NCBI GenBank assembly: GCA_047602405.1
Contig: JASGHJ010000001.1
Coordinates: forward strand, 1,856,001-1,920,000
DNA: 64,000 nucleotides
Source of the DNA: Anaeromyxobacteraceae bacterium
GTDB lineage: Bacteria; Myxococcota; Myxococcia; Myxococcales; Anaeromyxobacteraceae
Direction: 5' to 3'
A program made the translations under genes and the position numbers. Under the pieces are notes generated by a model that was given only the letters and a program-made list of their open reading frames with translations, searched no databases and was not told the origin of the DNA. Positions 6,021 to 38,027 of this stretch are shown here, piece by piece (the first letter of the stretch is position 1; each line of letters begins with the position of its first letter).

Positions 6021-7414
6021 GCGCGCGGCCCCAGGGCGCCGCGCTCCAGCGCGAGGGCGGCCGCGAGGACCGCGAGCCCGCCCTGCGCACCGTCGAGCAG
6101 GCGCTGCGCGACGCGTGCGGCATCACGCTCTCCGAGGGGCTCCGCGCCACGCTCACCGACGCGCTCGCCCGCGCCGCGCGCGACGCCGGCCAGCCCGAGG
6201 CGGCGTTCCTCGCGCGCCTCCACGGGCGGGACCCCGCCGCGCTCACCACGCTCGTCGAGGCGTCGGTGATCGGCGAGACCTACTTCTTCCGCCACCCCGA
6301 GCAGTTCGAGGCGCTGCGCGGCGAGCTGTTGCTCGGCGCGCCGCTCGACCGGCCGCTCCAGGTCTGGTCGGCGGGCTGCGCCACCGGCGAGGAGGCGTAC
6401 TCGCTCGCGATGGCGCTGCTCGACGCGGGCCGGACGGGCGCGGGCGACCGGATCCTCGCCACCGACGTCTCCGCCCGTGCACTCGCGGTCGCGCGGGAGG
6501 GCGTCTACGGCGAGTGGTCGATGCGGCGGGTGAGCCCCGCCGCCCGGGCGCGTCACTTCGAGCAGCGCGGCCCGCTCGTCGCGGTGCGGGCCGAGGCGCG
6601 CGCGCCCGTGGCGTTCGACCGGCACAACCTCGTGCGCGACCCGGCCCCCGCGAGCGGGCTCGACCTCGTCGTCTGCCGGAACGTCCTGATCTACTTCACC
6701 GCCGAGGCGGCCCTCGAGGTCGCGAAGAAGCTCGCCGGCGCGCTCCGTCCCGGCGGGCTCCTCGTGCTCGGCCCGGTCGAGTCCTCGGTGGCGAACGCGC
6801 TCGAGCTCGAGCGGCTCGAGGTCGCGGGGGCGATGGTGTTCCGGCGGCCGGAGCCCGGCCGGCCTTCAGGCCGGCCGAAGGCAGGTCCCCGGGTCGCGCG
6901 GTCGTCCCTCGTCTCCGGGCCGCTGCGCGATCCTACGCTCGGGACGAACGGGTTGGCTTCGCCGCAGGAACCGCGGGTCGTAGCGCCCGCGCCCGTGCCC
7001 GCGCCCACCCCCACCCCCGTCGCCGACTTCGCCGCCGCCCGGGACGCCGCCCGGAGGGGCGAGCTGGCGCTCGCCGAGACGCTCGCCCGGGAGGTCGCCG
7101 TCCGGGAGCTCTCGCCCGAGTCCTACCTCCTCCTCTCCATGGCGGCGGACGCCCGGGGGGACGTGGCGGGGGCGGTCGAGGCGGTTCGCCGCGCCCTGTA
7201 TTTGGACCCGGGGCTCGCGATGGGGCACGCTGCGCTCGTGCCACTCTATGGACAGCTCGGCCTCGCCGACGACGCCGCCCGCGCGCGGCGCAACGCGCTC
7301 GAGGCCATCCGCGAGCTCGACGACGCCGCGCAGCTGCGCGGGGTCGAGCCCGTCACCGCGGGCGCGCTCCGCAGCGCGCTCGGCGGGCCCCCGCCGTCCG
7401 TCAACAAGGTGTGA
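6017..7414 (+). CDS. cheR: CheR methyltransferase with C-terminal TPR (WspC-like)
   Basis: IGETYFFRH, WSAGCATGEEAYSLA, CRNVLIYF, TPR segment RRALYLDP; GTG overlaps the upstream TGA. Confidence 0.92.
   Translation: MSARPQGAALQREGGREDREPALRTVEQALRDACGITLSEGLRATLTDALARAARDAGQPEAAFLARLHGRDPAALTTLVEASVIGETYFFRHPEQFEALRGELLLGAPLDRPLQVWSAGCATGEEAYSLAMALLDAGRTGAGDRILATDVSARALAVAREGVYGEWSMRRVSPAARARHFEQRGPLVAVRAEARAPVAFDRHNLVRDPAPASGLDLVVCRNVLIYFTAEAALEVAKKLAGALRPGGLLVLGPVESSVANALELERLEVAGAMVFRRPEPGRPSGRPKAGPRVARSSLVSGPLRDPTLGTNGLASPQEPRVVAPAPVPAPTPTPVADFAAARDAARRGELALAETLAREVAVRELSPESYLLLSMAADARGDVAGAVEAVRRALYLDPGLAMGHAALVPLYGQLGLADDAARARRNALEAIRELDDAAQLRGVEPVTAGALRSALGGPPPSVNKV
6903..6951 (+). repeat. 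palindromic REP-like element (family A) inside the cheR linker
   Basis: CGTCCC TCGTCTCC GGGCCGC TGC GCGATCC TACGCTC GGGACG AACGG matches the repeat flanking the GIY-YIG gene. Confidence 0.85.
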
Positions 7415-30154: not shown

Positions 30155-30204
30155 CGTGCCTCGTCTCCGGCGCGCATTCGCGCGCCTACGCTCGGCACGA
30201 ACGG
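30155..30204 (+). repeat. palindromic REP-like element (family A)
   Basis: CGTGCC TCGTCTCC GGCGCGC ATTC GCGCGCC TACGCTC GGCACG AACGG. Confidence 0.85.
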
Positions 30205-30295
30205 TTGGGGTAGGGATTGCGCGGACGGCGGCAGGGCCCTAGAACAGGCCCGGCCGCCGTTCGTTTTTTCCGAGGCCGGTGAGAGGTCGATCGCG

Positions 30296-34404: not shown

Positions 34405-34830
34405 ATGACGGTCGGCGAGGCGATGACGAGGAACCCGGTGTCGTGCCCGGTGGAGGCCAAGCTGGGTGACGTCGCGAAGCAGATGGTGGAGCACGACTGC
34501 GGGGCGATCCCGATCGTCGAGGGCGGCCGCGCGATCGGTATCGTGACCGACCGCGACATCGTCGTCCGGGCGGTGGCGCAGGGGCGCAACCCGCTCGAGT
34601 GCACGGCGAGGGACGCGATGACCGAGGGCGTCCTCACGGTGCGCGAGGAGCAGGACCTCGAGGAGGCCGCCGAGCAGATGCAGGCGCAGCAGGTCCGGCG
34701 CGCGGTGGTGGTCGACGCGCAGGGGAAGATCTGCGGCATGCTCGCGCAGGCCGACATCGCCGAGGAGGACGAGGACCTCGCGGGCGAGATGGTCCAGGGC
34801 GTGTCGCAGGGGCCCGGGCTCCAGCACTGA
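34405..34830 (+). CDS. CBS domain pair protein
   Basis: MTRNP, DCGAIPIV, GIVTDRDIVVR, QVRR; GGAGG RBS. Confidence 0.92.
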   Translation: MTVGEAMTRNPVSCPVEAKLGDVAKQMVEHDCGAIPIVEGGRAIGIVTDRDIVVRAVAQGRNPLECTARDAMTEGVLTVREEQDLEEAAEQMQAQQVRRAVVVDAQGKICGMLAQADIAEEDEDLAGEMVQGVSQGPGLQH

Positions 34831-34841
34831 CTTCGTCGAGC

Positions 34842-34880
34842 GCTCCGTTCGTCCTGAGCATGTCGAAGGACGGACGGAGC
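34842..34880 (-). repeat. short REP-like element lacking the inner hairpin, within a longer terminator-like stem
   Basis: Reverse strand reads CGTCCT TCGACAT GCTC AGGACG AACGG. Confidence 0.65.
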
Positions 34881-34934
34881 ACCCGAAAGCGAACGCGGCG
34901 TCCGGGGGCCCGCCCGGTTATCCTGGCGGGCACC

Positions 34935-35916
34935 ATGAACGAAGCCGAACGCAGCGCCACGCTCGCCATCTGCCTGCTCGCGGCCCGGGCCGACGGCAAG
35001 ACCGACGACCGGGAGCGCGCGCAGCTCGCCGCGATCTCGGAGACGGTCGCCGCCGGGGCCGACCTCGCCCGGGCGCACGCGCTCGCGCGCGCGTACAACG
35101 AGGTCCTGCTCGGGAAGGTCACGCTCGAGAAGGCCGCCGCCGCGCTCACGACGCCGGAGGTGAAGCAGCTCGCCTTCGAGCTCGCGGTGGTGATCTGCGA
35201 CGCAGACGGCGTGCGCGTCCCGGAGGAACGGCAGTTCCTCGAGCGGCTCCGCGGCGCGCTCGGGCTCGAGCTCGCCGCGACCGAGCGGTTCGCGCAGTCC
35301 GCGGACGCGCTCGCCACGGTGCCGGCGGTCCCGCTGCAGGCCGGGCCGGCCACGGCGGTCGCCCCCGCCTCGCCGGCGGTGGACCCGGCCGCGCTCGACG
35401 AGAAGATCCGCAACTACGCCGTGCTGAACGGTGCGCTCGAGCTGCTCCCCGACTCGCTCGCCACCATGGCGATCGTGCCGCTGCAGCTCAAGATGGTCTA
35501 CGAGCTCGGCAAGGCGCACGGCTACGAGCTCGACCAGGGCCACATCCGCGACTTCATCGCCACCGCGGGCGTCGGCCTCGGCGCGCAGTACGTCGAGCAG
35601 ATCGGCCGGAAGCTCGTCGGCGGGCTCCTCGGGAAGCTCGCGGGCGACCTCGTGGGCGGGCTCGCCGGGCAGGCGCTCGAGTCGGGCGTCTCGTTCGCGA
35701 CGACCTACGCGCTCGGCCAGCTCGCGCGCCGGTACTACGCCGCCGGGCGCAACATGACCCCCGAGCTCCTCCGCGAGACGTACCAGGGGCTGCTCGCCGA
35801 GGCGCAGGCGCTCCGGGGGAAGCTCGCCGGCCAGATCGAGGACCGCGCCCGCGGCATCGATCCCCTCCCGCATCGGCGAGCTCGTCCGCGCAGCTGGGCA
35901 GTCGCGGCCCGCGTAG
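34935..35916 (+). CDS. TerB-like plus DUF697/YcjF-like protein, apparent +1 frameshift at ~35862
   Basis: AARADG...ER, CDADG...E..FL TerB motifs; removing one C gives IDPSRIGELVRAAGQSRPA-stop. Confidence 0.7.
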
Positions 35917-35936
35917 CCCATGCGCGAGGAGGGCGC

Positions 35937-36530
35937 GTGCTGCTCTTCCAGAAGCGCTTCCACGCCGGGCTCGTCGACGGCTCGGTCGAGCTGACCTTCC
36001 GGCGCTGGGACCGCCCGCACGTGAAGCCGGGGGGGCGCTACCGCGTGCACCCGATCGGCGTCGTGGAGGTGGACGCGCTCGAGGAGGTGCCCTTCGGCGC
36101 GGTCGGCGAGGCCGACGCGCGGCGCGCGGGCTTCACGGGGCTCGCCGAGCTCCGCGCGTTCCTCGCCGAGCTCGGCCCGCTGCGCGCCACGACCCGCGTC
36201 TGGAAGGTCGCCCTCCACCACGCCGGCCAGGACGACCGGGTGCCGCTCGCGCTCGAGGCCGAGCTCACCGACGCGGACGTCGACGCGATCGCTGCCCGGC
36301 TCGCGAAGCTCGACGGCCGGGGCGCCTGGACCCGCGAGACCCTCGCCCTGATCCGCAAGCACCCGCAGACCGCCGCCTCGCGCCTCGCCGCGAAGCTCGG
36401 CAGGGAGACGCTCCCGTTCAAGGTGGACGTCCGCAAGCTCAAGCGGCTCGGCCTCACCATGAGCTTCGAGGTCGGCTACGAGCTCTCGCCTCGCGGGAAG
36501 GCGTTCCTCGCGCGGCGGAAGCGGTGGTGA
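35937..36530 (+). CDS. ASCH/PUA-like domain protein with C-terminal winged-HTH-like segment
   Basis: GAGGAGG RBS; G.V.LTFRRW.RP.VK.G, DARRAGF, FKVDVRKLKRLGLT.S.EVGYELSPRG. Confidence 0.7.
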   Translation: MLLFQKRFHAGLVDGSVELTFRRWDRPHVKPGGRYRVHPIGVVEVDALEEVPFGAVGEADARRAGFTGLAELRAFLAELGPLRATTRVWKVALHHAGQDDRVPLALEAELTDADVDAIAARLAKLDGRGAWTRETLALIRKHPQTAASRLAAKLGRETLPFKVDVRKLKRLGLTMSFEVGYELSPRGKAFLARRKRW

Positions 36531-36531
36531 G

Positions 36532-36580
36532 CGCCCCTCGTCTCCGGGCCGCTGCGCGGCCCTACGCTCGGGGCGAACGG
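36532..36580 (+). repeat. palindromic REP-like element (family A)
   Basis: CGCCCC TCGTCTCC GGGCCGC TGC GCGGCCC TACGCTC GGGGCG AACGG. Confidence 0.9.
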
Positions 36581-36609
36581 TCGAGAGGAACGCGGAACAC
36601 CGGCGGGCG

Positions 36610-36707
36610 GGACACGGGGCACACGGTCGGCAGGAGCACGGGGCACACGGGTGGCAGGAACACGGGGCACACGGGTGGGCAGGAACACGGGGCACACGGG
36701 GGGGCAG
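36610..36707. repeat. minisatellite, 4 x 24-25 bp
   Basis: Unit GA(A/G)CACGGGGCACACGG(G/T)nGGCAG repeated four times. Confidence 0.9.
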
Positions 36708-36727
36708 GAGCGGACTCGGTCTTTCCC

Positions 36728-36778
36728 CCGTTCGTCCCGAGCGTAGCGGCCACGCAGTGGCCGCGGAGACGAGGGACG
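36728..36778 (-). repeat. palindromic REP-like element (family A), inverted
   Basis: Reverse strand reads CGTCCC TCGTCTCC GCGGCCAC TGC GTGGCCGC TACGCTC GGGACG AACGG. Confidence 0.9.
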
Positions 36779-36787
36779 ACCCCTGGA

Positions 36788-37096
36788 TCACCGCTGGGTT
36801 CTCCGCTCCCACGCGTTTTTCCCGCGCGCGGCCCGCTTCAGCTCCGCCCAGTCGCCGCGGATGAGCGCCTCCTTCTTCCGGCGACTCCACGGCTTCACCC
36901 GCTGCTCGGTCTCCTTGGCCTCATCGCGGGTGGGGCAGTCGCACGCCCAGACGAGCTCGACCGGGCGACGGCGAGAGGTGAAGCCCGGGAAGATGCCCTC
37001 CTGGTGTTCCCAGACGCGCTTCTCGAGCTCGTCGGTGTGGCCCACGTAGAACGACCCATCGGCGCAGCGGAGCATGTACGCGTAGAAGGCAGGCAT
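36788..37096 (-). CDS. stand-alone GIY-YIG nuclease (UPF0213/YhbQ-like)
   Basis: FYAYMLRCADGSFYVGHT, KRVWEH, TRDEAKETEQRVKPWSRRKKEALI. Confidence 0.92.
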   Translation of the reverse strand: MPAFYAYMLRCADGSFYVGHTDELEKRVWEHQEGIFPGFTSRRRPVELVWACDCPTRDEAKETEQRVKPWSRRKKEALIRGDWAELKRAARGKNAWERRTQR

Positions 37097-37128
37097 GGTG
37101 CCCGAGCGCTGCAAGAGTGGATCCGGGG

Positions 37129-37590
37129 CGCCCCTCGTCTCCGCGGCCGCGGTGCGGCCGCTACGCTCGGGGCGAGCGGGAGCTGTCGAGAAGGGCGAGG
37201 ATCACCGGGGCGCCCCTCGTCTCCGCGGCCGCGGTGCGGCCGCTACGCTCGGGGCGAGCGGGAGCGGTTGAGAAGGGCCAGGACCACCGGGACGCCCCTC
37301 GTCTCCGCGGCCGCGGTGCGGCCGCTACGCTCGGGGCGAGCGGGGAGCTGTCGAGAAGCGCCAGGATCACCGGAGCGCCCCTCGTCTCCGCGGCCTCGGT
37401 GCGGCCGCTACGCTCGGGGCGAGCGGGAGCTGTCGAGAAGGGCCAGGATCAACGGGGCGCCCCTCGTCTCCGCGGCCGCGGTGCGGCCGCTACGCTCGGG
37501 GCGAGCGGGGAGCTGTCGAGAAGGGCAGGATCACCGGAGCGCCCCTCGTCTCCGCGGCCGCGGTGCGGCCGCTACGCTCGGGGCTGACGG
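37129..37590 (+). repeat. tandem array of six family A elements, period 82-83 bp
   Basis: CGCCCCTCGTCTCCGCGGCCGCGGTGCGGCCGCTACGCTCGGGGCGAGCGGG at 37129, 37211, 37293, 37376, 37458, 37540 (copy 4 has one substitution, copy 6 a diverged tail), with related 30-31 bp linkers. Confidence 0.95.
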
Positions 37591-37663
37591 TGGGGGAGAC
37601 CGGCTCTGTTGTGGACGTTGGTCCGTGCGGCAGACGCCTGGTCCGCGCGGCGGCCCTCCGATC

Positions 37664-38027
37664 TCAATATTGCGGCACCCGGCCCGCTCCCAGCTCGGAC
37701 AGCCAGGCGGCGAGGGCGCGGCGGTCGTCCTTCGTGCCGGGGAACGGCGGCATGGGGCGCTTGCCCTCCTTGCCGATGGTCTGGAGCTTCCCGACCACGC
37801 CGTAGGCGTGCAGCGGGTCCCAGCCGGCGACGCGCTTCTGGAGGGGGATGTCCGTGTGGCACGAGTGGCAGCGCTCCCGGTAGACCTTCCGGCCGGCGGC
37901 GACGAGCGCGGGCGTCACGACGATGGGCCTCGGGGGGCGGGTCGAGGAGCCCGGCCTGGTCGACTCCGACCGCCGCCACCACGACCGCCACCGCACCTGC
38001 GAGGACCCACCGCACCCAGGAGCTCAT
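37664..38027 (-). CDS. monoheme c-type cytochrome, apparent +1 frameshift at ~37930
   Basis: N-terminal TM; G..VY...CHSCH; MPPF Met ligand; span is 3n+1. Confidence 0.75.

Follow-up and report, generated by a model that had tools for sequence, protein, structure and literature searches.

As described in the available text of Chenal et al. (2025, PMC11893778), the Ssn proteins are GIY-YIG nucleases (cd10448 in CDD) whose genes are flanked by NTS/SRM hairpins and whose cleavage activity is specific for single-stranded DNA (ssDNA). SsnA, with its catalytic set Y6, Y17, and E64, does not act on RNA, and the Discussion of that article already draws the analogy to REP sequences and their RAYT transposases (PMC11893778). 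Both the association of a stand-alone GIY-YIG gene with hairpins of its own on either flank and the comparison with REP/RAYT are thus known, as far as this text goes. CGTC repeats are stated to lack a dedicated transposase (Di Nocera et al., 2013, PMC3733652), and a word search of the main text of that article yields no mention of GIY-YIG.

The locus considered here lies in a stretch of 64,000 nucleotides (hereafter, the window) from the genome of an Anaeromyxobacteraceae bacterium. The original prediction was that a nuclease encoded there recognizes, nicks and propagates the palindromic repeat by which it is bracketed. All three computational predictions that follow from this idea are borne out below, while the general idea itself was already in print for Ssn (PMC11893778, in the text available). 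What is new is a different protein branch in combination with a different hairpin; the pair is of the same kind as Ssn and its hairpin, and does not constitute a new category. A literature search covering few subscription papers returned no description of this nuclease clade paired with this hairpin.

The locus resembles the Ssn loci, as far as they are described (PMC11893778), in its single-domain GIY-YIG gene (102 aa and hence <150 aa, compared to about 95–100 aa), in the inverted copies of a dispersed hairpin on both sides, in the tyrosine/tyrosine/glutamate set (here Y7, Y17, and E64), and in its wide, patchy spread. However, the hairpin is not the CGTC-tagged simple stem described for Ssn (PMC11893778), but reads GAG...CGA with C-GNA-G arms. 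The proteins differ as well: in a quick tree, which holds no SsnA row, the 11 Ssn-like rows fall on one side of a branch with 99% SH-aLRT support that excludes the nuclease clade, and the clade, whose own monophyly is supported at only 61%, is placed nearer to and on the same side as UPF0213/YhbQ. We take these 11 rows to be Ssn-like on account of their CGTC-type flanks and known motifs. Hyphomonas johnsonii MHS-2 and Kaistia defluvii have small GIY-YIG genes of the nuclease clade only, and in a table of PMC11893778 both genomes appear as NO for SsnA by tblastn and for strict cd10448, and as YES only by loose psiblast. The SRM pattern has no match within window positions 36000–38000, and a single locus among the 95 of the clade has it in its flanks, a result to be read with the pattern's insensitivity, since only 3 of the 11 Ssn-like loci matched it. 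With CGTC-tagged REPs, which are common in Alphaproteobacteria, the hairpin shares its dispersed, palindromic nature and the lack of an associated transposase; compared by description, its interrupted stem and variable inner hairpin differ from their 8–9-bp stem, 4–5-nt loop, and terminal CGTC tag (PMC3733652, in the text available).

The resemblance to REP/REPIN-RAYT systems comprises the bracketed single-copy gene, an inverted repeat with hundreds of intergenic copies, the bias toward convergent gaps, tandem clusters, and persistence after gene loss. However, instead of an HUH transposase (TnpA-REP, Y1 HUH), the gene encodes a GIY-YIG nuclease that acts by hydrolysis, the foot of the hairpin at its 5′ side is CCGYTCR-like and carries no GTAG tag (GTAG is found only inside the first arm), and the copies are mostly single instead of paired (253 of 272 clusters), with ragged ends. 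No Y1 HUH transposase lies between the repeats, as the bracketed gene is PF01541. Six weak Y1_Tnp (PF01797) matches occur elsewhere in the genome, none of which has the repeat on its flanks; a lone copy lies 621 bp from one of them. With UPF0213/YhbQ/YazA, finally, the nuclease shares its best solved-structure matches by sequence (1zg2, E 6.5e-14; 1ywl, E 4.3e-12), a fold match, and the side of the tree. Unlike the nuclease clade, which is patchy (14 of 37 genus genomes; 5 of 151 genomes of a phylum sample) and bracketed, YhbQ-like paralogues of this housekeeping type are near-universal in the genus, 32–43% identical to the nuclease, and bracketed on both sides in none of 18 cases.

The nuclease gene and its surroundings

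The features of the locus are listed in Table 1.

Table 1. Hairpin copies and associated features in the window. The strand of a hairpin copy is the one that reads GAG...CGA with C-GNA-G arms.
Feature	Position	Strand	Remarks
Stand-alone GIY-YIG nuclease gene	36788..37096	(-)	102 aa; open reading frame list and PF01541 match
Downstream hairpin copy	36727..36778	(+)	9 bp past nuclease stop
Upstream hairpin copy	37129..37180	(-)	32 bp before ATG; inverted relative to downstream copy; first unit of tandem array
Five more upstream copies	37211..37591	(-)	Starts at 37211, 37293, 37376, 37458, 37540; tandem array of 82–83-bp units
Second downstream copy	36532..36581	(-)	Directly past stop of ASCH-domain gene; inverted relative to 36727 copy
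24-bp tandem stutter, about 4 units	36590..36703	.	Spacer between the two downstream copies
Dispersed full copy	6903..6952	(-)	Profile from local copies
Dispersed full copy with different inner stem	30159..30205	(-)	Profile from local copies
Dispersed short-form copy, without inner hairpin	34845..34872	(+)	Absent from the original prediction

As originally predicted, the 102-aa gene is bracketed by a repeat of about 50 nt in inverted copies, the two nearest of which are 86% complementary, and one inverted match extends to position 36794, i.e., into the nuclease stop codon. The count of ten full copies in the window, eight of them within about 500 bp of the gene, was reproduced with a profile built from the local copies. 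Six of these eight form one tandem array and are therefore not independent insertions. The flanks of a 95%-identical orthologue contain one copy upstream and three downstream.

The protein matches PF01541 with 56.8 bits (cut-off 22.6), and the GIY-YIG catalytic domain is the sole domain matched. Its membership in the GIY-YIG superfamily is indicated by this match, by the fold, and by the catalytic Tyr/Arg/Glu residues: Y7, Y17, G19, R27, H31, and E64 are all present, and each is conserved to 99–100% in 95 aligned clade members. The conservation of an RRPVELVW block in the clade is partly an artefact of how the homologue set was found. A single-sequence fold was poor (pLDDT 66), and an alignment-based model (pLDDT 89) was used instead, the predicted fold of which matches UPF0213 proteins and Slx1. 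An NCBIfam search with the protein returned no family, and an ESM Atlas search returned GIY-YIG clusters only, with no further lead. The closest named homologue is from an Anaeromyxobacter (95% identity). The gene is under purifying selection, with 28 synonymous and 5 non-synonymous codon differences from the 95%-identical orthologue. A separate YhbQ-like paralogue in this genome is located 15 kb from the nearest hairpin copy.

The neighboring ASCH-domain gene (window 35938–36530, +) is present only in this genome (G000) and in G031 among 37 genus members, and may form a recently acquired patch together with the nuclease gene. Because of this restricted occurrence, no empty site was found for the window's own locus. 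In this assembly, the gene upstream of the ASCH gene runs into it as a 643-aa open frame (34599–36530), possibly due to a frameshift or an assembly error near 35860 (window 35860–35880). Short tandem stutters with units of about 14–24 bp adjoin hairpin copies not only in the window (Table 1), but also at G000:C1:878580-878740, a former cassette site, and upstream of a paralogue on G031:C12.

Structure, distribution and turnover of the hairpin

Read along one strand, the hairpin consists of the 5′ tag, a 4-bp stem, GAG, a C-GNA-G arm, the inner hairpin, a second C-GNA-G arm, A or T, CGA, and the returning stem. A structural pattern with C-G.A-G fixed in both arms and the apical loop left free has 244 matches. 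Of these, 210 have GTA as their first arm and 209 have GGA as their second, the stem pair adjoining GAG is C-G in 184 and T-A in 51, and the apical loop is itself of the C-GNA-G type (CGCAG, CGAAG, or CGGAG) in 155. The variation of the repeat conserves its structure: in 145 distinct inner sequences, the inner stem pairs to 0.90, compared to 0.61 (maximum 0.66) when the halves are shuffled. The sequence can moreover be read as forming a tandem G-A/A-G pair step, which the folding program leaves open. GCGNAGC-type loops are described as exceptionally stable in DNA and far less so in RNA (PMC13037366, in the text available).

Using the local-copy profile after one iteration, the 6.16-Mb genome was found to contain 307 copies (E<=0.01) in 272 clusters. 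The largest cluster is the nuclease locus with its eight copies; the next, with seven copies, has no GIY-YIG gene. A tandem array of seven 157-bp units at G000:C2:3676048-3677042, each unit comprising a hairpin copy and about 100 bp of flank, has no nuclease gene nearby and suggests local amplification that took flanking DNA along. According to a crude gene caller, 274 of the 307 copies lie outside genes or at their ends, and convergent gaps are enriched (85 of 274, compared to 482 of 2730 gaps overall). Of the copies between co-directional genes, 82 have the GAG strand in sense and 69 in antisense orientation, i.e., there is no transcribed-strand bias. Structure, placement, and lack of strand bias together point to an element that acts at the DNA level. 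No replication-strand bias is visible among the copies, as judged without a located origin. An Rfam search of window positions 36400–37800 yielded no family above the gathering score and two sub-threshold chance matches.

Several further observations concern the identity and reach of the repeat. The degenerate Ssn SRM pattern is matched by 24 of the 307 copies on the opposite strand; as this strand shows CGTC and a stem-loop in the A variant but CGAC in the T variant, the match is probably a chance product of one substitution. A second palindromic repeat with the core GGGGGTGGGGCCCC has 15 exact matches genome-wide and is at times fused to the hairpin (3 copies within 90 nt, e.g., G000:C1:1608987 and C1:1765153). 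In viral contigs, 122 pattern loci were found, 7 of them with the full stem, and no nuclease homologue lies within about 600 bp of any of these; 28 plasmid records contain homologue matches, all at <60% identity. A loose phylum-wide repeat pattern was discarded, as it produced thousands of chance matches.

Copies are gained or lost rapidly. In a comparison that covered 2.0 Mb of G031 (about 6.0 Mb in total), where flanks are 93% identical, 48 of 77 mappable copies of this genome are missing at the matching G031 site and, in the reverse direction, 30 of 63 G031 copies are missing here; in this two-genome comparison, each difference may reflect either gain or loss. In 22 single-gap alignments, the extra stretch measures 40–194 nt and includes additional sequence that varies on either side of the repeat, and a duplication of the target is not evident. 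An early impression that the 3′ end of the repeat is fixed was overturned by the larger sample, in which the ends vary on both sides. The A variant, which flanks the window nuclease, had been predicted to be the younger one, but failed the empty-site test: 14 of 24 A copies and 26 of 41 T copies are unshared with G031. At G031:C4:245012 (L158), a 45-nt repeat copy appears to be inserted in frame into a coding region that is uninterrupted here.

Linkage of gene and hairpin across genomes

Across bacteria, a strict structural motif was scored in the 300 nt upstream and the 350 nt downstream of each gene, leaving out seven own-gene or duplicate rows, six Y1 loci, seven long UvrC-like rows (no or negligible match), and the second copy of the window's own locus. 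In this set, for which 80 homologues had been chosen by peptide words from the query and not at random, both flanks contain the motif in 71 of the 95 clade loci, and at least one flank does so in 93; 24 loci lack it on one or both sides, 2 of them on both. By record title, the loci belong to five phyla (Pseudomonadota, Chloroflexota, Actinomycetota, Bacteroidota, and Myxococcota). The hairpins flank the clade genes in a preferred orientation, which is that of the window locus in 58 of the 71 both-side loci, and the motif density amounts to 5.8 per kb near the gene versus 0.32 per kb further out. YhbQ-like genes have the motif on one side in 5 of 18 cases and never on both, and the 11 Ssn-like genes from the same genomes lack it altogether, being accompanied by CGTC-type simple hairpins instead. 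In random windows of this genome, the motif is found on one side in 232 of 600 and on both sides in 26 of 600 cases; as GC-rich random windows often carry a motif on one side, only the both-side count is informative. The expectation of the original prediction that homologues are flanked by cognate repeats is thereby confirmed.

In the held-out phylum sample, a clade member was found in 5 of 151 genomes. For the two members that were new, the strict motif failed, while copies of the family are visible by eye: the first member is bracketed by inverted copies whose inner arms are longer, and in the second, the upstream copy contains a single stem mismatch, while what is left of a downstream copy adjoins an assembly gap. 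None of the seven YhbQ-like matches in the same sample has flanking repeat copies.

The predicted covariation of repeat and protein is found as well. Upstream and downstream copies resemble each other within a locus (similarity 0.64, compared to 0.10 when shuffled; 67 loci, host relatedness kept in), and repeat similarity correlates with protein similarity across 78 loci (rho 0.35, reached in 0 of 500 permutations; Mantel test, which ignores relatedness). Gene and repeat are linked across phyla, and their pairing is not due to chance. In many homologues (L118–L129, L091, L092, and L096), the reading frame continues through the downstream repeats, resulting in open frames of 113–384 aa, and in some, the nuclease stop codon is supplied by the repeat. 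The alphaproteobacterial genomes G001, G003, and G005 (L091–L111) contain this clade together with several Ssn-like genes, and each has a hairpin type of its own.

Within the genus, the clade gene is present in 14 of 37 genomes, and some small GIY-YIG match in 33. Copy number follows gene presence, as had been proposed: the median number of matches, long and short forms added up, is 149 (23–471) with the gene and 7 (1–115) without (p 1.3e-5, a statistic that ignores relatedness), and all 16 genomes with <=16 copies lack the clade gene. Seven genomes without the gene still hold 57–115 copies, including G006 and G011, which are single-contig assemblies and 99–100% complete. Variants are matched as well. 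The variant ending GGAGACGAG, which flanks the window nuclease, has 114 matches here, 88 in G031, and 0–4 in each of the other 35 genomes, and G031 is the sole other genus genome with an orthologue of the window nuclease; since the two are close kin, this sharing counts as one evolutionary event. In G030, the nuclease is flanked by the short form, and the genome has 381 short versus 3 long matches. Moreover, paralogues within one genome (G031, G005) carry different repeat variants, the second G031 paralogue being flanked by the T variant.

In most other genus members with the gene, it occupies one conserved site that is different from the window locus. Judging by the flanking sequence, we assume this site to be moxR-DUF58-like. 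The whole cassette is present or absent at this one site: G007 contains an 845-bp cassette where G006 has 11 bp (flanks 96% identical), G010 has no gap, and G011 as well as the genome studied here keep repeat copies without the gene. Gene loss after spread fits the leftover copies at the cassette site of G011; the site of G006 is clean.

Possible mechanism and alternative explanations

GIY-YIG enzymes hydrolyze DNA with neither a covalent intermediate nor a strand-transfer step, so any spread of the hairpin would require host recombination or repair. In our judgment, it is probable that the nuclease, flanked by and co-varying with a dispersed hairpin, binds this hairpin in single-stranded form and nicks beside it, and that host repair copies it. 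The substrate would be one repeat strand, folded into an outer stem, the tandem G-A/A-G step, two C-GNA-G arms, and the variable inner hairpin. By analogy with SsnA, as described in the text available (PMC11893778), from which both substrate and cut site are borrowed, the nuclease would bind the folded single strand and nick in the flank beside the hairpin. More speculatively, host repair or recombination would then copy the hairpin to new sites with ragged ends, and spread of this kind fits the ragged, duplication-free ends and the flank-bearing tandem arrays. Recognition and nicking of the cognate hairpin appear likely; that the nuclease is the main cause of hairpin spread is also favored, with less confidence. 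A more tentative reading, to which we give somewhat less than even weight, is that, on the UPF0213/YhbQ side of the family, a minimal GIY-YIG nuclease was recruited a second time, independently, as a REP-like mobilizer that reads branched ssDNA with paralogue-specific variants. The structure read would then consist of tandem G-A pairs, C-GNA-G mini-hairpins, and an inner arm that can be exchanged freely, and a nick beside it, followed by host repair, would allow transposase-free spread of the repeat across many phyla.

The nuclease might alternatively recognize the hairpin but be kept as a tool of the host that cuts incoming or recombining ssDNA, as does SsnA in Neisseria, while the repeats multiply by host recombination or through another enzyme. 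Such a role has been demonstrated for the closest system, as described in the text available (PMC11893778), and the conserved site of the gene in most gene-bearing genus members, the purifying selection, and the persistence of repeats without the gene agree with it. However, the patchy distribution in genus and phylum sample, the gain or loss of the cassette, and the match of the variant at the gene to those elsewhere in the genome resemble what a replicating pair would show, and we regard a pure host function as rather unlikely; the two roles are not exclusive. Even less probable is that the nuclease gene is passive cargo that was captured once, with the hairpins and, at times, the DNA between two of them being moved by another enzyme, e.g., an HUH/Y1 transposase. 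The six weak Y1_Tnp matches could provide such an enzyme, nine other inverted hairpin pairs bracket 0.5–1.4 kb in this genome, and the lack of a strand-transfer step in GIY-YIG chemistry points in the same direction, but none of the Y1 matches is bracketed, the catalytic residues of the nuclease are kept, and in five named phyla it is one and the same protein clade that locus-specific variants bracket.

The least probable of the explanations, and a very unlikely one, is that the repeats act as RNA hairpins, i.e., as terminators or mRNA stabilizers, and that the nuclease is linked to RNA or transcripts, or merely autoregulated. Both repeat strands fold well as RNA (-29 to -33 kcal/mol), and the enrichment in convergent gaps (crude gene caller) would agree with such a role, yet these gaps are also where an insertion does the least harm, and the copies show no preference for the transcribed strand. 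Moreover, the C-GNA-G loops represent a stable mini-hairpin motif of DNA whose RNA counterpart is far less stable (PMC13037366), and SsnA is inactive on RNA (PMC11893778), as far as the texts available describe.

The multiplication of REP-like repeats in the absence of a RAYT is an open question that has been stated for CGTC repeats (PMC3733652), and for NTS-ssnA-NTS a hypothesis on the same question of spread has been raised (PMC11893778), both in the text available. The locus described here offers a small and testable pair, consisting of a 102-aa enzyme and a defined hairpin, with two paralogues that differ in their variants in one relative and dozens of filled and empty sites. If the nuclease indeed cuts its own hairpin in ssDNA, it would represent a second family among the site-specific ssDNA nucleases, and since the inner arm of its target is seemingly free to vary, it would be useful as a molecular tool.
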